A stretch of DNA of 64,000 nucleotides from positions 64,001-128,000 of the forward strand of contig CAWCDG010000009.1 in NCBI GenBank assembly GCA_963794325.1, given 5' to 3'. Both the position numbers and the translations under genes were made by a program. This document shows positions 24,434 to 35,451 of the stretch, piece after piece. Below the pieces are notes generated by a model that saw only the letters and a list, made by a program, of their open reading frames with translations, ran no database searches and had not been told where the DNA came from. Position 1 is the stretch's first letter; the number at the start of each line of letters is the position of its first letter. The DNA comes from an uncultured delta proteobacterium. GTDB lineage: Bacteria > Desulfobacterota > Binatia > Binatales > Binataceae.

Positions 24434-25822
24434 TCAAGATCCGGCGCGCCGCTTGACGCCGGCGAGTATCGCATCGGCGAGTGCGCCGTAGTTGCCGTCA
24501 TAATGATGAGCGCCATTCCTGCGGAACGTTTCGACGCCTCGCTGCGCGAGCGCAGGACAGGCAGTATCGGTCTCGTCCTGTCCGTAGAAGCACTGGATGA
24601 GGTGCGCCGGAATTTTTGTTGCTTGCGGCAACACTGGAAGTGCGTCGGGTCCGGGCGGTTCGCCCAGCCATCCGCGAACCGAAATTTCGAAATCCGCAGA
24701 TTTCGAGAGTCCCAGCAAAGAGATCAGAACCACGTGGTCACGCAAGCTCGGCGGCAGAAGGTTGTAGGCGAACGGCATCACGTCGGCGCCGAATGAGTAA
24801 CCGACCAACACTACTTTGTCGGCGTGCCATTTTGTCATGAACGTCTGGATCAGCGCGCCGACCACATCCGCGGTCTGCTGCGGCGTCTTCTTGCTCCAGA
24901 AATATCGAAGAGTGTCCAGGCCAACGACCGGCACACCTTGCTGCTGAAGGTCCTCCGCGATGGTCTTGTCGAGGTCACGCCATCCGCCATCACCTGAGAG
25001 GAGGATCGCCATCAGCTTCGACGGATGGTCAACCGGCAGCTCGGCGAGCGGCAAGCCAGAGATATCAACCGCCTTCGGAATATTCGTGGGAGCGTTGGTT
25101 ACCGCGGGCCGGAGCGGCGCGAGATGCGGCTCGATCAGCGATCGCAGTGCGTCGCCCGGCGCCATGCTGGGCGGCATCTCGTGGAGATCGATCGGCGCGC
25201 CCTCGTGACGCAGTCTCATCAGGTATTCGCGGTCCGCTCTGCGGACGTGATGGGTCAATCCGACTATCCAGAAGCCAGGCAATTTTTTTGGAGCGCCATA
25301 GCGAAATCCACCCCTGCGCGCCGTCGTGGGCAGGTCGGAACAAATTGGTTGCCTGCTCGCTATGATCTCCGCGGGATCGATCGACACGGCACCCGCAATC
25401 GTTACTGCGGGAGCCTGGACCAGGTTCAATTCGGCGAGCGTGCCGCCTTCGCCGACGCCGGCAACAATCGGTGTCAGGTAGGTTGGAAGCCGGCGCTCTC
25501 TCTCCAGTTGGCGGGTGAGCAATTCCGTATCGTAGACCAACTCGTGGCACTTCTCCTTGAGCTTATCGAGCCCCCGCAAATATTTTTTGCTATCAACCTC
25601 GGCCACCAACGCGCCGCCTTTCGCCATCGCTCGCGCGGCAGCCTCATCTGCCTTCGTCAATCCCTTGCGGCCGGAAAAGTAGATCACGACCGCACGAGCT
25701 TCACCCGTCGGCTCGGCTAGTTTGACGCTGCCGTAGCGGCCCGGCTCGAACGCATATGCGGTCGATGCAGAGAGGCAAAAGGCGGCAGCGATGAAAGCGA
25801 GCGCACGACGCAATCCAATCAT
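24434..25822 (-). CDS. acvB: AcvB/VirJ family lysyl-phosphatidylglycerol hydrolase
   Basis: SGDGGWRDLD, LRYFW, GYSFGADV; downstream of mprF. Confidence 0.88.
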   Translation of the reverse strand: MIGLRRALAFIAAAFCLSASTAYAFEPGRYGSVKLAEPTGEARAVVIYFSGRKGLTKADEAAARAMAKGGALVAEVDSKKYLRGLDKLKEKCHELVYDTELLTRQLERERRLPTYLTPIVAGVGEGGTLAELNLVQAPAVTIAGAVSIDPAEIIASRQPICSDLPTTARRGGFRYGAPKKLPGFWIVGLTHHVRRADREYLMRLRHEGAPIDLHEMPPSMAPGDALRSLIEPHLAPLRPAVTNAPTNIPKAVDISGLPLAELPVDHPSKLMAILLSGDGGWRDLDKTIAEDLQQQGVPVVGLDTLRYFWSKKTPQQTADVVGALIQTFMTKWHADKVVLVGYSFGADVMPFAYNLLPPSLRDHVVLISLLGLSKSADFEISVRGWLGEPPGPDALPVLPQATKIPAHLIQCFYGQDETDTACPALAQRGVETFRRNGAHHYDGNYGALADAILAGVKRRAGS

Positions 25823-28417
25823 GTCGCGGAGGAACCTCGCCTGTATCCGCTGGCGAGCGCTGCCACGTCCGCGAGGGTGATGAATGGACCGGCCGCGCCC
25901 GATGCCGCCAGATACCGAGGTTCCCAGACCGGGCGAAACTTATTCTTGAAGCTGCGCAGTCCCTGAAAATTGTAGATGGGTCTGCCGTGTTGCCATACCA
26001 GGCCTGCGATGCGATTCCACCGTGACGAAAGCGGTCTCCGCGCGATACCTGCCAGTGGCGCCATCCCAAGGCTGAGCCGCTTGAAGCCTCGGGCTTTCAG
26101 ATCCAACGCCAACTGCGTGAACAAGCATTCCATCGTACACGGTGGCGCGCCTGGCACCTGCCGCATAAGTCCTACCGTCGCTTCGGTCTGCAGATCCGTC
26201 GTCATGAAGGTGACGAACGCGATCGGCTTCCCATGTTGCGATAACAACGCTGCCGATTGAGCCGCGACAAATCGCGGCTCGAAGCCCGCGACCGAGAACC
26301 GTCGCTCAGCGGCGTGATTTCTGGCAAGCCACCTATCGGAGATCTCACTGAGCACTTCCCTGCTCCTGGCATATCTGTTGAGGAGGCAGAATCTGGAATG
26401 TCAGTCCTTCTCGTTCGCCGCGCTTCAGCGCCTGGCGCAGCCCATAGCGCTCGGAACCTTCCATGCTGAACTGCTCCAGGTAAATGCAGGCCTCTTCGCC
26501 GACCTTCACGACTCTAAGGCCCGCGTCGAGGTAGAGCGGCAAGCTATCGGGACGAACCTGGTAGAAGGCGGCGCGTCCGCCGTGCTTGTCGGCAAGTTCG
26601 ACGAAGCGCCAAACCAGTTCCGGCCATTCCTCGCAGCGTCCTACGGGATCGAACAGCGCAACCCAACTCCGGCCGCGCTTGGCATACATGAGGAACGAGT
26701 TTCCCGAGCTGGAAAACAGAAAGCTCTTGTCGCCCATCAGCGCCAGCGTCGCGGCACTGCGCTCCTGGCCGCCAATGATGGCAGTTGCGCGCGACAGGTC
26801 TGGTTCCGAAGGTGGCTGGATGCGTCCGGGCGCGGTCCGCAGCAACTGCCATAACGAAATGCCGAGCGCCAGAATCGACGCTCCGAGAATCGCTCGCAAT
26901 GCCCGGGATGCCTGAGCATCGAATTCAAACTGCCACCAGATTTCCCGCCGATAGGCGACGTCACGAAAGGCGAACAGCAGGATACCGATCGCGCAGGCGA
27001 TGACGACGGCAATCGCGATGAACCAGCCCAGCCTGAACGGCTGATGCAGGAACGCGGCCGGGCGAGTGAACTCTCGGCGCGTCGCGAGCAGAAGACATAT
27101 CAGGAAAACAATTGCGGCGGTTTCGCCGAATGCCAGGCCTTTCGCCAGACTGAATGCAACGTTGACCAACGCGACAATCAGCGCGACCCACCATGCGCCG
27201 TCCAGCCGATGATACAGGCCGCGAGCCACGAACAGCAGAAAGACGCCCGCCAGGGTCGCGAGCAAGTGCGAGATCTCAACGGCCCAGAGCGGCAGGACAC
27301 CTTGCAGCGCCGCCAGCCGCCAATCCAGCGCGGGAGTCGCGCCCGATAAGACCAGCATGACGCCGACCGCGAAGGTGACGGCGCTCAGAAAAATAGGCGC
27401 GAGAAGTTCGGCTCCCAGCGAAACCCGTTCCCCGGCTTTTGAGCGAAAACGGCCCGGCACGCTCCGCAGTTCGAATCCCGCCAATGACGCTGCGGCAAGC
27501 AGTAGCGGCAGCACGAAATACACGCCGCGATAAATCAGCAGTGCTGCCACCAACTGGTTGGAATCGACAAAGCGTCTCAGCGCGAGGAAGACGACGACGT
27601 CGAAAACGCCGAAGCCGCCCGGGACCCGGCTGATCAGACCCAGCGCAGTCGCCGCCGAAAAGACTGCCGCGAAACTGAAGAAGTCGATCCGCGCGCCTGG
27701 CAACAGAAACCAGAACGCCGCGGCCGCCGCCGTCAAATCGATCGCGCTAGCCACGAGCTGAAGGAGTGTGATCGAAAGTGCGGGCATCGCGATCGAAAGC
27801 CGCCCGATTGCTATCGGTTGCCGCCGCCATGAACGAAGCAGCAGCGCGAGCAGGAGTGCGAGCAACGCGGCGGCGCCGGCTAATCGAATCGACGTGATCG
27901 AAACAGGCAACAAGTGCGCGATCGCATTCCCGGAAAGCATCAGACTGAGTGCTGCGAACGCCGCCAGGCCAATGCCGAATGCCACGTTGATGAAGAGCAT
28001 GACGCGCGCCGTCTGCTCAGGGCGCACGCCGACCGCGCCATAGACGCGATCGCGAACCGCGTCGGCGGTCAGCGCCTTGAAACTGACGGCGTTGCCCAGT
28101 GCAGAGCCGCAGAACGATGCGAGCAGCAGGGCCGGCGTCGATACTTGCACGCCGACATAACTCAATGCGCACAGATCGCGGGCGACCAGCGCCAGGTAGC
28201 TCAATCCCGTCAGCAGAATAGAAATCCAGATGAGCCTATGTGGTGTCGCTCGAAGCGCCTGTGTCACTCCGTGATAGTCGAGCCCGCGTGACAAATCATT
28301 GAGAAGGAAGAGCACTAGCGCACATGCAGCGACCGCGGCGATAGGACCCGCGATACGCCGCAAAATCTTCGCGCGACTGGTCAGCGAGCGATTGGTATGC
28401 AGCAGTTTTTTGTCCAT
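25819..28417 (-). pseudogene. mprF: MprF flippase/aminoacyl-PG synthase, split by a frameshift near 26360
   Basis: TM flippase region, WWQFEF..ASRALR, GDKSFLFS, KVGEEA in 26345-28417; ISDRWL, LSLGMAPL, YNFQGLRSFKNKFRP in 25819-26355. Confidence 0.85.
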
Positions 28418-28442
28418 GAGCGACAGCGTCTGCGTCTTTTCA

Positions 28443-29429
28443 TCAGGAAGCGTCTCTCGCGTCGGTGAAGGTGGAGTCGCGTTCAGTAATAGACGCGTCG
28501 TCGATGATTCGGGCCAGCGTCCAGCGAGACGATTGCGATAACATCGGTGCGCGCGCGACGACTGCCCATTCTCCCTCTCTCACCGTGAATCTGTGCGCTT
28601 CTGCCATAAGTTCCGGCGCTGCGGCAAGACTTGGATTCTTCCAAAGCAGCGCGCGTATGCGAGCGCGTTCCAACCCGATCCTGGTCTTCAGGCTCGGGCT
28701 GCAGCGCCCCGCCTGCCACGCCCTCAGCTTGTCCATGAGTCCCGCCAATGATTCGATCACAGTGCGTCGAACCGAGGTTGCCACGCTCGAGATTTCCTCA
28801 GCAATGCCGACCGGATCCAGTTCGTCAAATTGTCGGGACCGAGCGGCGGCTGCCTGCGCGCGACACCACGCATAGTGATCTTGATCGGAATCGCCAGTTT
28901 CGTCGTCGGAATTTGTTGCGACGCGAAGCTTTAGCCGGATAATGCGAAGGCTGAGCCGCATGAGGGCAACGGCCTCAGTTTCCGCCTCGGGTTCATCAGT
29001 GGTGACCAGCACGAGATCCGAAGTTAGGACCTCGTGCAAAGCTGCTTTCTCCCCCAGAATCAGCATCGCAGCAAAGCAAGCGCGTCTGTACAAACTCCTC
29101 CACTCAAGCTCGATCAGTCCCGCAAGCGAGGACGATCGGGAAAGGGCGTCGTCAATTTTGAATCTTGCCGATTCGATTTCAGAGCGCCGAGCCGGGCTGT
29201 GATACTGCGAGCCGACGTTCCAAATCGTCAGATGAGTCAGGAGTTTCTCAACCGCTTCCCTCAGTGGGTTCGAATCATTCACTCGCGCGCTTTTTTCCAG
29301 CACATCTCCGACGGCGTCCCAGTCGATTTCATAGATCCGGCGATCCAACAGTAGGAGTTCGGTCGCCTTGCTCCAGGCGTAAAGGTCTCGCTCGCGAAGC
29401 CTTCGATTTTCGTCATCTTTGTCCGACAC
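28443..29429 (-). CDS. Protein with two tandem DUF29-like domains
   Basis: DLYAWS...IDWDAV..LE...LLTHL..W and DHYAWC..QA...LDP..IAEEI...LMDKL..W. Confidence 0.65.
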   Translation of the reverse strand: MSDKDDENRRLRERDLYAWSKATELLLLDRRIYEIDWDAVGDVLEKSARVNDSNPLREAVEKLLTHLTIWNVGSQYHSPARRSEIESARFKIDDALSRSSSLAGLIELEWRSLYRRACFAAMLILGEKAALHEVLTSDLVLVTTDEPEAETEAVALMRLSLRIIRLKLRVATNSDDETGDSDQDHYAWCRAQAAAARSRQFDELDPVGIAEEISSVATSVRRTVIESLAGLMDKLRAWQAGRCSPSLKTRIGLERARIRALLWKNPSLAAAPELMAEAHRFTVREGEWAVVARAPMLSQSSRWTLARIIDDASITERDSTFTDARDAS

Positions 29430-29575
29430 TCTGTTCTCTCCCAGTGGGCCGATTCCGCGCGGCTGGATAGCATCCAGTCTCCGCGACGGTCGGTTTCGGA
29501 TATCAGGCGAATTGTCGGCATGCGCCCGCGGCTCATGCTCGGCGATATCCCGCGAAACGCGACTATTGGAGAGAG

Positions 29576-29908
29576 CTAAATTCTCAGACGGCAGAGGAGC
29601 GCAAGAGGAAGGGAGCTTACAGGTGCAAGAGAAAAAATGCGCACCGAAAAACGCGACATCCGCCGCAGGCGTGCATCGAATACTCTTCCGAACGACCCTT
29701 GAGGCGCGGAAACCTCTTGCAGAGAGCGCGAGCGAAGGTTCTCCTCAAACGGCAGTGTCCTGCTTTGACGCCGGGCGCTGCGCAGTGGGAGATTGAAGAC
29801 AACGGGCGCCGAATCGCCTTTCGTCGTTCCACTCGGTGCAATCGCGCCTGGCAATGCGCAAGTGATTGCGAGCAACGACGTCAGCAACCATAGACCGAGC
29901 GTCTTCAC
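29576..29908 (-). CDS. Putative leader protein ending LALLCRLRI
   Basis: GTG start 7 nt after a TACACT box; hydrophobic signal MKTLGLWLLTSLLAITCALP; 110 aa; C-terminus resembles 33617-33949. Confidence 0.6.
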   Translation of the reverse strand: MKTLGLWLLTSLLAITCALPGAIAPSGTTKGDSAPVVFNLPLRSARRQSRTLPFEENLRSRSLQEVSAPQGSFGRVFDARLRRMSRFSVRIFSLAPVSSLPLALLCRLRI

Positions 29909-30118
29909 GTCACTGAGTGTACATCCAATTTTCGATCGGAGCGAACCGTAAGAACCGCCGCGCAAGGGTCTTTTTGCCACCTGATTAGAGGCAGCAGAGC
30001 CCGAAGTTGCACGCGTGCAACGATCCTTAAGACGCAAAACAAGGAAATTCCAATTCCTTTTTTCTGGTTCCTCTTTTGCTTGCCGTTGGGTGAGAGAGAT
30101 TCTAGTGACAGTCGACTC

Positions 30119-31258
30119 ATGACGGCCTTCGAGAAAAATCGGTTCTATATGCCCGAGCTTGACGGGTTGAGGTTCTTCGCTTTTCTGGCGGTGTTCCTGT
30201 CGCACGTCGCGGTGTTTTCCAACGGCAACCACGGATCAAGACCCGCAGTAGTAGAACTCTGCAACATGTTCGGCCGGTTTGGCGTCGACCTGTTTTTTGC
30301 ACTCAGTGCCTATCTTCTGACCTGCCTGATGCTTGCCGAGAGGGAGAAATCCGGCACGATTCGGATTGGCGCTTTCTATATGCGCCGCCTGTTGAGAATA
30401 TGGCCGCTCTATTTCGCCTGGTTGGCCGCGCTGATGCTGACACGGCATCTATGGTCTGATTATTCGCTGAGCTTCTTCGTCCCTTTTCTATTATTCGGGG
30501 GAAATTTCGCGGCTTCGCTCGGCGTGGTTACGAGTCTGGTCATCCTGCCGCTGTGGAGTCTTTCGGTCGAGGAACAGTTTTATCTCGTGTGGCCGCTGCT
30601 CATGCATAACCTGACCCGCCGCGGCGTGGTCGTGGCCGGCGGCGCAATCTGGATATTCACGAGCTGGGCCCGGTTCGAACTGCTTCGAAGCGGGATGACG
30701 CCTCATCAGATCTGGTTTATTGGGTTCGCGCGGCTCGGCGCGATTGCGCTCGGAATCATGATGGCCGTACTCCCGCGACATTCGCCTCGCGCTCGCGGGC
30801 TGTGGTTTCTGGTGGGCTCGGCTTGTTGGGCGGATGCTGCCATGTGCCACCTCTATAGAATGCACTCCGAGGGATTTGCGCCTCCGATGGTCGGCTTTGC
30901 GATGGCTGCGATTGGCGCTGCAGCGTTCCTCTTTGCTGCGATCGGAATCAAGGAAGGCGGTATTCTGACCAAGCCCACTTCGGTCTACTTGGGGCGTATC
31001 TCATACGGCCTGTACATTTTCCATGGCGCCGCGCTGGTGCTGGCCGCCCATATCTTGCCCGCGTTGCCAGATCCTGCGTTTTGGCCGGCGTTATCGATTC
31101 TGGGTTTCGGTCTGACACTGGCCCTTTCGACGGCATCCTACCGATGGCTTGAAAGCCCTTTCCTCCGTCTGAAGAAACGCTACGAAGTCATCAGCGCCGC
31201 GCCGGTGATTTCGGGTCGCCTAGGTCATGAGCGTCTCGCGGTCAACGAAAGCGACTAA
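30119..31258 (+). CDS. Acyltransferase family 3 (OafA-like)
   Basis: PELDGLR, GVDLFFALS, RRLLRIWPLY, WSLSVEEQFY, LGRISYGLY. Confidence 0.92.
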   Translation: MTAFEKNRFYMPELDGLRFFAFLAVFLSHVAVFSNGNHGSRPAVVELCNMFGRFGVDLFFALSAYLLTCLMLAEREKSGTIRIGAFYMRRLLRIWPLYFAWLAALMLTRHLWSDYSLSFFVPFLLFGGNFAASLGVVTSLVILPLWSLSVEEQFYLVWPLLMHNLTRRGVVVAGGAIWIFTSWARFELLRSGMTPHQIWFIGFARLGAIALGIMMAVLPRHSPRARGLWFLVGSACWADAAMCHLYRMHSEGFAPPMVGFAMAAIGAAAFLFAAIGIKEGGILTKPTSVYLGRISYGLYIFHGAALVLAAHILPALPDPAFWPALSILGFGLTLALSTASYRWLESPFLRLKKRYEVISAAPVISGRLGHERLAVNESD

Positions 31259-32011
31259 AGCGACAAATTGCCGGCGACACGCGCATTACCTGGATTTCCG
31301 TACCGCGCCAGAACACTTCAATGCCGTAAGGATACTCCGCGGCGAAAGCGGCGCTCGATCGTCTTACCGGCGTCCCTCACGGAGATGCCCGACGAATGAA
31401 AAGTGGGACTCATCGAATTGCCGGAATCATCGTAGATATTAGATTTGCGGCGGGGCGCTCGATGAAACGGGATGGCGAGTACACAAGGGCGGCAAGAGCC
31501 GATTCTCGAGCGGGGCTACGATATCCAGGGCACACGAGCGAGCAGGGTCATACGCGCGCTCGAGAGTCACACACCTGTATCCTGATCGGCGATCAACGAA
31601 GCTACGCAGGTCTCCGATGGCTTCTCGGATGTCTTTGGCTGACATTCGAGCGAAAGTGCGACGTGTGCAAGCAGCGCTGACATTCGGTCAAGCGGAGCAA
31701 GATCTCGCAGATGACAAGGTGCACGCTCGGCGTGCCGAAGGCGGCGATTGTCTTTTGGTGGGCCGTTGGAGACTCAAGGCAGCTGAATAAGAGTCGGCGA
31801 AACAGCCCTCTTCACTGCTAAAATGGATCGTCGTCCGACGTATGAAAAATGAACATTCGAAGCAAACATATCGTCACATGTAATAGGTGCCCGCGCAGAG
31901 GCCGCGACGAGTCGCGAGCTCTCTGTCACCCCCAAAAAAGAGGCGACCCGTGGCGGCTCGCCGTGGCATCCGAACCTCATCCCGCGCAAGCGCACATGAA
32001 GGAGGTAGCGT

Positions 32012-33322
32012 ATGCCAACAGGAGATTGTGTCTCGGTCCGCCACGTGCCCGCTGCGATGGTCGCGATCGCACTCGCGATTGCACTCGCGGTCCCGGCAGG
32101 CGCCGCAGTAAAACCGGGCGACGTCATCACCGCTCAAACCGCGTACAAGGTGAAAGACCTTGTCTCGCCCGGCGTTTACTACAAAGTCACGAACGGCATG
32201 ACGATGGACATCGTGCCGACCTCAACCATCCAGTGGCCACCGCCGTTTCGCGACGCCACTGAAAAGTATGCCGACCAGGTGCGGCTCTCGCCCGACGGCC
32301 GGTCGCTGGTGAACTATGTCGCTGGGCAACCGTTTCCGTTTCTTGATCCCAATGACCCGAGCGTTGCGACCAAGATCATGTGGAACGCGGCGTTCAGACC
32401 TATCACGTCCGACGACTATGACCTGCGATACTACGATTGCGACGACGTGTACGAAGGACTCAACAAGCCGTACAACGTGATCGACTACTTTCAGATTGGA
32501 CACTACGCCGGTTACGACGAAGTCGGGCGGACCGAAGTCGATCCAATCCCGATCGATCCTGACTTTAAGGCGACGGGGCGCTATTGGATGTTCGCTCTTT
32601 ACCCGATTCTCACGCCCGAAAATCTTCGCGGGTCTGGTTTCATTCGCTACCGCTACGCAAACCCAACCAAGGCTGACGACATCTGGCAGTGGACTCCAGG
32701 AACGCGGCGGCTGCGGCGCCTGAACGAAGGCATCATGAGCGACGCAGTTGTGGGTGGAGGCAATCCCACTTCGTTCGACCCCGATCACTACTCCGGATTC
32801 AACGCCAAGGTCGAGGAATACAACTACAAGCTCCTTGGCCAGAAGACGATGCTTGCGTCGGTGAACGCCAAGCATTCGCCGGAAATCACCTGCTCAACCG
32901 ACGGCGGCGCCAGCGCGTGTCCCGAGAATTGGGAGATGCGCCAACTGTACATTGTCCAGACCTCGCCGCGCGTCTCGGTCAACAGCCAGGCGCTGCACTC
33001 GAAGTCGATTCTCTACATCGACGGCGAGATGTGGTTCGAACCTTACGTGGATGAATACGATCCCAACGGTCAGCTCTGGCAGAATCACATCTACTGGCTG
33101 ACCTATCGCGACCGACCGGTGCCTGATGCGCGCATAGCGATCTATCCCTTCAAGCGCGAATTTGTGGTGGGCGCCGCCGCGACCGACGTTCAGTCTGGAA
33201 TGACCACGATGTGCTACCTGCCCGGGCAAAGCACGCCCGAGCACGAATGCTGGTACATCAACATGGGCGGAGTCGACCGCGATTTCTTCACGACCAACGC
33301 GATGGTCCGAGCCGCGCCGTGA
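32012..33322 (+). CDS. DUF1329 family periplasmic protein (paralog of 6818-8110)
   Basis: Shares YRDRPVPDARIAIYPFKREFVVG and MCYLPGQxTPEHECWYIN; RBS AAGGAGG. Confidence 0.85.
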   Translation: MPTGDCVSVRHVPAAMVAIALAIALAVPAGAAVKPGDVITAQTAYKVKDLVSPGVYYKVTNGMTMDIVPTSTIQWPPPFRDATEKYADQVRLSPDGRSLVNYVAGQPFPFLDPNDPSVATKIMWNAAFRPITSDDYDLRYYDCDDVYEGLNKPYNVIDYFQIGHYAGYDEVGRTEVDPIPIDPDFKATGRYWMFALYPILTPENLRGSGFIRYRYANPTKADDIWQWTPGTRRLRRLNEGIMSDAVVGGGNPTSFDPDHYSGFNAKVEEYNYKLLGQKTMLASVNAKHSPEITCSTDGGASACPENWEMRQLYIVQTSPRVSVNSQALHSKSILYIDGEMWFEPYVDEYDPNGQLWQNHIYWLTYRDRPVPDARIAIYPFKREFVVGAAATDVQSGMTTMCYLPGQSTPEHECWYINMGGVDRDFFTTNAMVRAAP

Positions 33323-33421
33323 TCAATGACGCGGGACCTTGTTCCTGAACTGCTCCCGGTGAGCGAACCCGATGTCACTACTGCGACAGGGGTGGAAATC
33401 ATCAGAAGCGAAAGGTGCTTA

Positions 33422-33496
33422 AGGGACTCGAAATCCTCTGGAGCGAAAGCTCCGTGCGGGTTCGAGTCCCGCCCCGGCACCATTATTTTGGCGTGG
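33422..33496 (+). mobile_element. Second att-like degenerate tRNA-Leu 3' fragment
   Basis: 35 bp (33431-33465) identical to 20119-20153; ends GGCACCA then the same TATTTTGGCGTGG flank. Confidence 0.75.
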
Positions 33497-33616
33497 TGAG
33501 GCCTATCTGGTGAACGCGGACGATTGACCGCCATCGACGACTAGCAATCGCTCCTACTTGGAAAACTCAGAGCGGATTGCCTTCACCGCTGGCGTCAGGC
33601 TAAGAATGTAGTCGTC

Positions 33617-33949
33617 TTGCGCCTTCTCGCCATAATCCTTGCTGTCCTGCTTCTTCCGTTCAGCATGAACGTGCCGTCAGCGATGGCGTGTCCGACAGCG
33701 GCGTGCTGCGGCCCCGATTGTTCGAGCAGCGCTCCGATCAATCAGTTGAGCTGCTGCAAAACGCCGGTTGCGCCGGATCGAGCGACGATTCAAGCGCGAG
33801 ATACGCAACATTTCGATTCGATCGGGAGTATGCCCGTAGCGGCGGTGATCGTCGCGACTTCGCACTCGCGGAGCATCGTCGTCGCTCGAGGGTATTCGCC
33901 ACCCGACCGTCTCCTTTCGTTGGCACTTCTCTGTTCCCGACAAATCTGA
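33617..33949 (+). CDS. Cys-rich putative leader protein upstream of the Cus-like operon
   Basis: Signal peptide, CPTAACCGPDC...SCCK, C-terminal YSPP...LALLCSRQI. Confidence 0.7.
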   Translation: MRLLAIILAVLLLPFSMNVPSAMACPTAACCGPDCSSSAPINQLSCCKTPVAPDRATIQARDTQHFDSIGSMPVAAVIVATSHSRSIVVARGYSPPDRLLSLALLCSRQI

Positions 33950-34134
33950 ACCTTCCATAAGCGCGTGAGTTGAATGGCGAATGTGCCTCATTCGCCGCCG
34001 ACGCTTGCGTGCCGCCTGCTCGCGACAATCCGATGAACATCTGCCGATACGATTCGGCAGGTTAAAGCGCAGGTTCTGGACCTGCGAAGGACTCAGCCGC
34101 GCCGCGATCGATCGCGGCTGGAAGGTTGGAATTT

Positions 34135-35451
34135 GTGAAGTGCCAAAGCATTCGCCGCACAACGGCGCGAAAGTTGATAGCGACCATATTCGCCATCGCA
34201 ATTCTGACGGCGATTCCATCGGCGGGACGCGCACAGGATGGCGCTTCGGCGACTGAAACACCCTCCGGCTCGGATCGACTGCGAGCGCTTGTCGATGAGG
34301 CTCTCGCTCGCAGCCCGGTAGTACTCGCGGCGCGCAGCCACTGGCAGGCTCAAACGAAGGTGCCGATCCAGGCCGCCACGCTGCCTGATCCGGAGGTCTC
34401 GCTCCAGCATTTCACCGTTGGAAGTCCGCAGCCATTCTCAGGCTATGAGAGCAGCGACTTCTACTACACCGGCTTCGGCGTCTCGCAGGACATTCCGGGG
34501 CCCGGCAAGCTCCGCCTGCAAAGGTCTGAGGCCGAGAGAGATGCCGAGTACTCCAAGCATCGCTACGAAGCCGCCGGTCGCGCCGTCGAAGAAAAGGTCA
34601 AGGAGCTCTACTACGAGCTGTTCTATCACGCTAAGACGCTGGCGATCCTTGATCGCAATCAGGACGAGCTGCAGCAGATTCAGAAAATCGCCGAAACCCG
34701 CTACCGCCTCGGACAAAGCCAGCAGCAGGATCTGATCAAAGCGCAGCTTCAGACCACCGAGCTCCTCAAGGAGCACGCAATGCACCATCAGGAGGAGGAT
34801 CAAGAACAGCTCGCGCTCAAGCAGGTGCTCGGGAGGGATCCCGACTCGCGCAATATCGACATCGGTGACGTCGAAATGACGCAGCTCCAGCTCGACGCAT
34901 CGCAGATCGCGCAGTTGGCCGACAGCGGTTCTCCCGACCTCGCCGCGGATCGCGCGATGGAAGCGCGTAGCGCCGAAGCGTTGAAGCTTGCGCATCAGGG
35001 ATACTGGCCGGACTTCACGGTCGGTTACTCGTATCAAAAAACCGGGCCCGGTTTCAGCGACTATTACATGTTGAGTCTCGGCGCGAAGGTTCCGCTTTAT
35101 TTCTGGCGCAAACAGACGCCCGCCATCGAGCAGGCCGCGCTTGAGGCCGAATCAGCGCGCGCGCAAGTCCGTGCAACTCAGCTGCAGGTCTCCTCAGATG
35201 GAGAAAGCAGCATGGTCGCGATGCGCACCGCGGAACGGATCCTGGCTATCTATCGCGACGGTCTGATCCCGCAGGCCGAAACGTCGCAAGCCTCGGCGAT
35301 GGCGGCGTATCGAGTCGGCAAAGTCGATTTCCAGACGCTGCTCTCGTCGGTGCTCGATCTGCAGAACCTGCGGCAGGAGTACTACCGCAGCCTCGCCGAC
35401 CACGAGATCGCTATCGCCAAACTCCAGCAGGTAATCGGTGACCGACGATGA
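34135..35451 (+). CDS. cusC: TolC/CusC-like outer membrane efflux protein
   Basis: LPDPEV, VSQDIPGPGKL, YRVGKVDF; GTG 34135 with SD GGAAGG (TTG 34126 is an alternative start). Confidence 0.85.
   Translation: MKCQSIRRTTARKLIATIFAIAILTAIPSAGRAQDGASATETPSGSDRLRALVDEALARSPVVLAARSHWQAQTKVPIQAATLPDPEVSLQHFTVGSPQPFSGYESSDFYYTGFGVSQDIPGPGKLRLQRSEAERDAEYSKHRYEAAGRAVEEKVKELYYELFYHAKTLAILDRNQDELQQIQKIAETRYRLGQSQQQDLIKAQLQTTELLKEHAMHHQEEDQEQLALKQVLGRDPDSRNIDIGDVEMTQLQLDASQIAQLADSGSPDLAADRAMEARSAEALKLAHQGYWPDFTVGYSYQKTGPGFSDYYMLSLGAKVPLYFWRKQTPAIEQAALEAESARAQVRATQLQVSSDGESSMVAMRTAERILAIYRDGLIPQAETSQASAMAAYRVGKVDFQTLLSSVLDLQNLRQEYYRSLADHEIAIAKLQQVIGDRR

Follow-up and report, generated by a model that had tools for sequence, protein, structure and literature searches.

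We examined a stretch of 64,000 nucleotides (nt) from an uncultured delta proteobacterium (Bacteria; Desulfobacterota; Binatia; Binatales; Binataceae), i.e., positions 64,001 to 128,000 of the forward strand of contig CAWCDG010000009.1 in NCBI GenBank assembly GCA_963794325.1; this whole stretch is called the window and all coordinates refer to it. Our subject is a small open reading frame on its minus strand, ORF A, which is a real gene and the first cistron of a conserved operon, where it is followed by a dispensable gene with a tandem DUF29 domain, by mprF and by virJ/acvB. Its product ends in a short tail, LCRLRI directly before the stop codon, that is shared far beyond chance with other small leaders. 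The bodies of these leaders have no detectable homology, and sequence comparison supports the view of the tail as a modular element. We propose that ORF A encodes an exported leader that controls the mprF-acvB operon in cis while still a nascent chain, by means of a tail-dependent pause at the stop codon that opens a structured spacer; we consider the chance that this proposal is correct to be close to even.

The leader gene ORF A

29576-29908, minus strand: leader ORF A, 110 codons plus TAG stop, GTG start (coding part 29579-29908)
29834-29908, minus strand: signal-peptide-like N-terminus, approximately codons 1-25 (VK, a hydrophobic run, then AIA), as read from the sequence
29579-29608, minus strand: conserved tail PLALLCRLRI, of which the last six codons (LCRLRI) are 29579-29596

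An earlier reading of the window, made from its letters alone (the sequence-only reading), had reported a minus-strand frame of 110 amino acids (aa) with a signal peptide and the end PLALLCRLRI. This frame is confirmed; its start is the GTG at 29908 and its stop the TAG at 29576-29578. The N-terminus, VKTLGLWLLTSLLAITCALPGAIA, is hydrophobic and resembles a Sec signal, with Lys2, a hydrophobic run of approximately 20 residues and AIA. The putative mature part contains 15 Arg plus Lys against 5 Asp plus Glu over 85 residues. Cysteine occurs just twice, at position 17 within the signal segment and at position 106 within the tail, and there is no His; approximately 80 residues separate the hydrophobic segment from the tail. 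AlphaFold2, run on an alignment of 24 rows, predicts helices only at residues 2-17 and 102-105 (pLDDT 56.9, pTM 0.21) and, hence, no fold, which is weak evidence because the alignment is so shallow.

Full-length, stop-free orthologues of 110-111 aa are present in 11 of the 47 genomes of the genus (an initial search gave 61-74% identity), and another genus of the same family harbors a further one (L066, 110 aa) with the tail LAFLCCLRI-TAG. Five unpublished genomes (G019, G024, G244, G391, and G365) contribute to the tallies only and are excluded from the sequence analyses. In a collection of 5.8 billion proteins the family of ORF A amounts to 28 clusters, all of them hypothetical or unnamed, and neither ORF A nor leader B (see below) has a match in Pfam or NCBIfam. 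The orthologue of G006 has an ATG at the position of the GTG of ORF A, which supports the assigned start. The earlier claim that the leader lacks a Shine-Dalgarno (SD) sequence of its own holds for ORF A in the host genome but not for the whole family, since in some orthologues GGAG occurs 12-13 nt, or AGGAG 1 nt, before the start. Substitutions are distributed over the three codon positions as 386/313/539, favoring the third, and dN/dS for the whole reading frame is 0.45.

The shared C-terminal tail

The hexapeptide LCRLRI is retained in all 11 orthologues of the genus, synonymous changes notwithstanding. For the last six codons pS is 0.205 and pN 0.014, and the resulting dN/dS of 0.059, compared with 0.45 for the whole frame, indicates that the tail is selected as a peptide, and far more so than the rest of ORF A. 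In the 24-row alignment L105, L108, R109, and I110 are invariant, while C106 and R107 are conserved in at least 90%. The pattern L.LLC...I* ends just two open reading frames in the 4.45-Mb genome, ORF A and leader B, and its reverse is found in none of the 204,078 stop-delimited frames.

33617-33949, plus strand: leader B (the "Cus leader"), Cys-rich, 110 aa, ending LALLCSRQI-TGA (coding part 33617-33946)
33944-33956, plus strand: strand AUC-UGA-ACCUUCC of the closing helix of leader B
34120-34137, plus strand: partner strand GGAAGGUUGGA and GTG start of the OEP gene

Leader B lies upstream of OEP-HlyD-RND genes. The start of the OEP gene is most likely the GTG at 34135, not the listed TTG at 34126, as a GTG or ATG is kept there in 24 relatives. 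The last 10 codons of the B family have a dN/dS of 0.018 (pS 0.335). That ORF A and leader B are dissimilar beyond the tail, as the sequence-only reading had maintained, proved correct: BLASTP aligns the tail only (7 of 11 residues identical) and hhalign, comparing the two families, aligns only the signal peptides, at a probability of 31%. Homology of the two proteins was, therefore, rejected.

A degenerate DNA pattern for L-x-x-L-C-[RS]-[LR]-[RQ]-I-stop gave 46 rows in the genus, compared with 5 for the reversed control; the 46 comprise 8 A-type leaders, 32 Cys-rich leaders and 6 unrelated matches. In a class-wide draw 77 of 401 genomes contained the tail pattern, 48 of these being among the 94 sampled genomes of the same family. 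The proteins encoded at the fetched tail-bearing loci measure 96-128 aa; they begin with a hydrophobic segment, contain a CCxxxC...CC motif and invariably end LCS[RL]QI-TGA. Most also have an SPP, which in the Cys-rich leaders usually lies approximately 15 residues from the end. ORF A has only the tail, the length and the apparent export signal in common with the Cys-rich leaders. Stop codons differ by type: every Cys-rich leader seen ends in TGA, whereas 11 of 12 A-type leaders end in TAG and 1 in TAA (usage in long reading frames of the genome is TGA 50%, TAG 30%, TAA 20%).

Cys-rich leaders mostly precede OEP genes and some precede a gene for a small periplasmic protein. Four such cases (L028, L042, L070, and L082) are Cys-rich, tail-bearing leaders before signal-peptide proteins of 101-131 aa without Pfam match; in L028 the gene after the small periplasmic protein has a Cys-rich N-terminus, which we take to be reminiscent of a heavy-metal P-type ATPase. 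At L077 (G397:C16) both body and target are of a third kind: a leader of 96 aa with few cysteines, ending LLRLLCSLRI-TGA (L077:1522-1809, minus strand), is separated by 120 nt from a downstream gene whose product has Pro-kumamolisin activation and subtilase domains. Altogether the tail is found before at least four kinds of downstream gene, i.e., OEP/RND efflux, small periplasmic protein, DUF29-mprF, and pro-kumamolisin-type peptidase. The tail-bearing group can be described as proteins of 96-128 aa with a hydrophobic N-terminus and the end LxxLC[SR]x[QR]I-stop, followed by a structured spacer of 120-214 nt and a co-directional gene, all of which apply to ORF A. The suggestion of the sequence-only reading that two leaders before unrelated genes reflect a reusable module is thus supported, both by the range of bodies and targets and by the amino-acid-level selection on the tail.

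A profile built from 23 Cys-rich leaders recovered 151 representatives at E up to 0.001 among 1.84 billion, none of which is an A-family protein. Of these, 136 are new and 90 of the 136 end in C[SRC][LRIM][QR]I. More distant relatives (P0231-P0265) end differently, in ...PPLFL..SLRL, ...PPLFLRLRSLQP, ...PIFLRTLSLRL, ...PPLFELHSSLLI, or ...SGLSPPRLA/...SPPxxA, which suggests a wider family with variable C-terminal motifs. Chance matches to the tail were discarded on inspection, namely L031 (a 219-aa open frame without leader features, presumably resembling HisH), L033, L067, L068, L078, and L079.

The spacer and stop:SD pairing

29430-29575, minus strand: intercistronic spacer, 146 nt, conserved and structured
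29568-29581, minus strand: proposed anti-SD strand, i.e., the last codon, the TAG stop and CUCUCUCC, a CU-rich segment kept in orthologues
29498-29550, minus strand: hairpin GGAUAUC...GAUAUCC with inner GCAUG/CAUGC stem (RNAalifold alignment columns 62-107)
29458-29485, minus strand: hairpin CGCGG-(CUGGAU..AUCCAG)-CCGCG (RNAalifold alignment columns 124-161)
29427-29441, minus strand: SD-like GGAGAGA and GTG start of the DUF29 gene

The spacer after ORF A is constrained and about as conserved as coding sequence, with a mean pairwise identity of 0.744 compared with 0.790 for ORF A and 0.552 for the 150 nt upstream of ORF A. Both hairpins that had been noted in it are present in the sequence as well as in the RNAalifold consensus of nine orthologues, which contains two compensatory pairs (columns 83/87 and 70/99).

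The sequence-only reading had further claimed that the region of the stop codon pairs with the SD of the next gene at 12 of 14 positions, two of them G-U. In the hand register AUUUAGCUCUCUCC and GGAGAGAACAGAGU do form these pairs (RNAduplex, -14.6 kcal/mol). For a ranking, the best duplex at each locus between a stop window (last codon, stop and 16 nt beyond) and an SD window (22 nt before the next start plus the start codon) was set against those that the SD window forms with every other 22-nt window in the interval that opens 200 nt ahead of the stop and closes directly before the SD window. For ORF A 8.8% of the 273 other windows and 8.5% of 200 shuffles were as good. Folding of the whole region as an ensemble gave 13.2 expected pairs between the stop and SD segments, a value reached by 2 of 60 shuffles of the stop segment; 9-13 expected pairs were obtained for 6 of the 9 DUF29-bearing A orthologues, and the observed value was reached in 1-5 of 60 trials when the stop segments of the A orthologues were shuffled. 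The case for pairing in A leaders rests on these duplex and ensemble tests; MAFFT places gaps in the SD region. The pairing of ORF A exists but is only marginally above chance, and it is absent in some orthologues.

Stop:SD pairing is well supported for the Cys-rich leaders. Among the leaders other than A, the stop window ranked in the top 5% at 21 of 42 loci (B 14/25, C/D 2/5, further loci 5/12), although the B loci are close relatives and, therefore, not independent counts; L072 was excluded because its downstream start is not fixed. At L030, UUCUCGUCCCG pairs with CGGGACGAGAA and AUCUG with CAGAU in a 16-bp helix of -27.5 kcal/mol that beats all 308 alternative windows, and the duplexes of L069, L074, and L080 are likewise better than every alternative. 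L032 has a compensatory insertion, matched on both strands, and diverged loci maintain the complementarity with different sequences. RNAalifold recovers the helix in the B family (94.5% of cells paired, compared with 30-62% in slid controls), with three pairs changed on both sides, a number reached in 8 of 500 shuffles.

The operon downstream of ORF A

28443-29429, minus strand: tandem-DUF29 gene, 328 aa, GTG start (Pfam PF01724, E 1.2e-27, two stretches)
25819-28417, minus strand: mprF-like lysyl-phosphatidylglycerol synthase, split into a 690-aa and a 178-aa reading frame
24434-25822, minus strand: virJ/acvB-like hydrolase, last gene of the operon (Pfam VirJ, E 4.6e-78)

ORF A and its orthologues are always the first gene of the series leader-(DUF29)-mprF; virJ/acvB follows mprF in the two loci checked, and the order leader, DUF29, mprF, virJ is identical in the other genus. 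An mprF orthologue (87-92% identity) occurs in exactly the 11 genomes of the genus that bear the leader and always adjoins it. Four further genomes possess an mprF of 63-66% identity, and no such leader lies upstream of it in the three that were inspected (G018, G009, and G016). In the window, LPG_synthase_TM and the two halves of LPG_synthase_C are distributed over the two mprF reading frames. The split, near 26345-26355 (...CAGGGAAGTGCTCAGTGA), is a frameshift or an assembly error; relatives have one reading frame of 868-919 aa.

The DUF29 gene is dispensable. It was judged to be full-length in 6 of the 11 genomes (five measured, G021 from spacing); its other states are an in-frame gene of 184 aa in G028 (L054), an in-frame stub of 42 aa in G003 (L059), an interrupted gene in G006 (L056), a degenerate one in G064 (L058), and absence in G007 (L060). 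Both in-frame remnants begin at the original start codon and terminate 25 nt ahead of mprF. In the window, too, mprF starts 25 nt after the DUF29 stop, and no GGAG-type SD stands in front of it. Taken together, and bearing in mind the small numbers, this hints that the feature preserved is the flow of translation towards mprF.

Comparison with described systems

Among described systems CutF of Rhodobacter capsulatus comes closest. It is exported and carries a Cu-binding motif (PMC9973294); its nascent chain senses copper and, by means of a stalling C-terminus, unmasks the SD of the next gene (PMC9973294; bioRxiv 10.1101/2025.02.05.636593). CutF-like proteins are described as shorter than 150 aa, with a signal peptide, a PP within the last 15 residues and a co-directional neighbor, and the commonest neighbor of CutF-like/DUF2946 proteins is an OEP gene (PMC9973294). 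The likeness to the present leaders lies in a small, exported-type protein with a conserved C-terminal motif, encoded directly upstream of a gene on the same strand, and, as predicted, in an RNA structure masking the next SD. The Cys-rich B, C, and D leaders share, in addition, the OEP (CusC/CzcC) neighbor, the Cys motifs and the SPP (in leader B SPPDR, with the second Pro 15 residues from the end), and the CutF-like rule set applies to the Cys-rich leaders. ORF A, with 110 aa and 146 nt to the DUF29 gene, agrees in size and in the position of its co-directional neighbor, but it contains neither a Cys/His metal motif nor PP (its tail, SSLPLALLCRLRI, has a single Pro, and SPP occurs in 1 of the 24 aligned A proteins, P0127), and the genes downstream are not metal genes. 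Furthermore, the invariant element here is LxxLC[SR]x[QR]I at the stop codon instead of a proline run, and the masking helix is long-range, joining stop and SD regions across a spacer of 120-214 nt, instead of a local stem-loop.

At the level of Pfam DUF2946 (PF11162), ORF A and leader B have no match at E up to 1 and seven Cys-rich relatives none at E up to 10, while a search of the host genome gave only sub-threshold matches elsewhere. A bridge from the Cys-rich leaders to DUF2946 was also rejected, as ten distant profile matches of the weakest type lack the domain at E up to 1; in the phylum as sampled, DUF2946 is present in 3 of 251 genomes. Because the metal-motif, PP and DUF2946 tests all fail, ORF A is not classed as CutF-like. 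Members of the tail-bearing group could nevertheless be included in list D or in the cluster logos of CutF-like proteins (PMC9973294).

Arrest peptides acting on Sec/YidC genes (SecM, VemP, and MifM) offer a second comparison. They carry an export signal at the N-terminus, as the present leaders apparently do, and share with them a conserved C-terminal motif that is set apart by a spacer of over 30 aa (PMC10987492). They are, moreover, lineage-restricted, some classes arrest with a stop codon in the A site, and the stalled ribosome unmasks an SD (PMC10987492). Peptides ending NSP-stop, NAP-stop, and DGMK-stop are examples of such arrest at a stop codon, and known arrest peptides can be specific to the ribosomes of a lineage (PMC10987492). 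Of the four characteristics given for this class (PMC10987492), ORF A shows three: its N-terminus is a putative export signal, its C-terminus is conserved, and more than 30 aa lie between the two. The fourth, the downstream gene, differs, the targets being DUF29, mprF, and virJ and not secA, secDF, or yidC. The tail is also unlike the RAPP-type, KYxIW, and proline-stop motifs, and arrest is putative here.

CruR of Bordetella pertussis is likewise an upstream reading frame, related to DUF2946, with a post-transcriptional effect on the gene that follows (PMC9426467, PMC9973294), and its intergenic region is similarly long (162 nt, compared with 146 nt at ORF A). CruR differs in its copper response, its reported independence of the signal sequence, its reported use of Rho-dependent termination and its other C-terminus (PMC9973294). 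CzcI of Cupriavidus metallidurans, a small protein encoded upstream of an RND efflux operon, is counted as CutF-like despite having no C-terminal proline motif (PMC9973294); compared by its description only, it differs in its metal-efflux context, its sequence family and in presumably lacking an LCxxxI tail. The module had been put forward as one not yet described, which is only partly right, since exported, stalling nascent-chain sensors that unmask an SD are described (CutF, DUF2946). A search for the motifs LCSRQI, LCRLRI, and LCSLQI found no paper, Binatota are not mentioned among the matches listed for literature on CutF, DUF2946, leader peptides and ribosome stalling, and nothing relevant to an mprF leader was among the matches listed.

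Proposed mechanism and alternatives

Export, stalling, regulatory effect and sensed signal are what we infer for ORF A. Like CutF or SecM, its nascent chain would exert its effect in cis. Its signal sequence would reach the translocon before the ribosome has left the last codons, and LCRLRI in the exit tunnel would slow termination at UAG. The paused ribosome would then cover the CU-rich segment past the stop, open the spacer and free the next SD and start, so that translation could be relayed to mprF; the length of the pause may be set by how well the Arg-rich chain is pulled across the membrane. As ORF A has the same invariant six-residue end as the metal-type leaders of the same family, it is probably a translational sensor of a known kind, and the in-frame DUF29 remnants, with their original start and their end shortly before mprF, fit a translational relay.

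Several observations weigh against this proposal. The DUF29 gene, whose SD would be unmasked, is decayed, shortened or absent in 5 of the 11 genomes, while leader and mprF persist. The extreme case is G007, where the DUF29 gene and its SD are missing, the stop segment pairs with the mprF start at only -4.6 kcal/mol (94% of windows as good), and the leader is intact. Across A-type loci the duplex ranks span 4-87%, with only 1 of 10 in the top 5%, and the locus of the other genus (L066) ranks at 49%; the comparison of stop:SD complementarity with controls in relatives, which the sequence-only reading had recommended, supports pairing well for the Cys-rich leaders and only marginally for the A type. 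Ensemble folding gives no cross-pairing in L004 and L024 and little in L023 (3.4 pairs in one of nine). Shuffled stop segments still average 2-6.6 expected pairs (6.6 for ORF A), so part of the signal stems simply from the proximity of a CU-rich strand to a purine-rich SD. The 12-of-14 helix is absent from the RNAalifold result for the A alignment, in which tail codons pair with DUF29 codons 2-5, without covariation. The spacer of 146 nt is longer than most CutF-like intergenic regions, which are below 100 nt (PMC9973294), and the tail of ORF A lacks a proline motif of the kind shown to stall CutF. Finally, the body of ORF A is constrained along its length (dN/dS 0.22-0.65) and its family conserves an internal block, FNLPLRSxRRxSRALPxEENL, which could equally mean that it functions as a mature protein.

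The latter is the core of the leading alternative, in which ORF A encodes a small cationic protein, largely disordered, that is secreted or resides in the periplasm. It would work in trans, either together with MprF/AcvB or on the envelope, its tail being a signal at a free C-terminus (a ligand of a PDZ domain or a tail-specific protease, a degron, or a modified Cys) and not an arrest sequence. Besides the constraint on the body and the internal block, the persistence of the leader in G007 without the DUF29 SD and the significant pairing in just one of ten A-type loci agree with this idea, as does the fact that the tail always ends exactly at the stop codon, like a C-terminal recognition motif. 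A degron-like end is plausible because exported CutF is reported to be rapidly degraded (PMC9973294). We nonetheless regard a protein acting in trans as rather unlikely. No fold is predicted for ORF A, and the tail occurs on unrelated bodies, each directly before a different gene, with structured spacers and strong stop:SD pairing, a cis arrangement that a trans-acting protein does not need. The allocation of stop codons by leader type, set against the usage in the genome, also speaks against it.

It is less probable still, in our view, that ORF A is involved in plain translational coupling, whereby any ribosome arriving at the leader stop opens the pairing and the spacer structure that hide the next SD. 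Arrest would not be programmed, and conservation of the tail would have some other cause. Upstream translation is an established means of unmasking a downstream ribosome-binding site, e.g., in the MS2 coat-replicase system. The closing helix brings the stop codon next to the following start, the shortened in-frame DUF29 genes retain their start codons and terminate 25 nt ahead of mprF, and mprF has no GGAG-type SD, all of which coupling would accommodate. What it leaves unexplained are the near-invariant last 6-10 residues on bodies with 22% column identity, and the apparent export signal and the length of 96-128 aa that all leaders have. That ORF A is a chance open frame with a coincidental tail and pairing is hardly credible: open frames are common at 59% G+C and the pairing statistic is weak, but the conservation data contradict it, with full-length conservation in 12 genomes, the third-position excess, and a tail that occurs twice in the genome (none reversed) and 46 times in the genus (five reversed).

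Returning to a nascent-chain leader acting in cis, a more general form of the proposal is that the family of the host evolved a portable termination-arrest tail, LxxLC[SR]x[QR]I-stop, that was placed on a variety of exported sensor bodies. Those rich in Cys would inform efflux and ATPase operons about metals in the periplasm, while the Arg-rich, cysteine-poor body of ORF A would report the ease with which a cationic chain crosses the membrane, i.e., surface charge or membrane potential, as feedback onto mprF-acvB. We put this forward as a speculation that, taken as a whole, is rather unlikely to be correct.

Implications

If the tail is an arrest sequence, a lineage-specific motif would join the short list of bacterial arrest peptides, and a single motif would prove to be compatible with sensing domains of unrelated kinds. 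Sensing by a secreted nascent chain, the CutF principle, would then extend from metals to lipid remodeling by mprF/acvB, which determine membrane charge, in a phylum of uncultured soil bacteria. Should the portable-tail form hold as well, ORF A would be the first nascent-chain sensor of lipid aminoacylation and a case of modular evolution of arrest peptides. Even without arrest, a C-terminal hexapeptide that hardly varies over more than 150 protein clusters needs explaining.

Other features of the window

A promoter and terminator scan of 28300-30300 gave nothing that exceeds shuffled expectation. With Rfam (E up to 1) the region 28000-35000 yielded two sub-threshold matches only, neither of them related to the spacers. 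Just upstream of leader B, at 33389-33475 on the plus strand, lies a tRNA-like sequence with a T-arm and a ...GGCACCA end, which scores 22.1 bits with the Rfam tRNA-Sec model (threshold 47) and is not called by ARAGORN; it may be a tRNA remnant.

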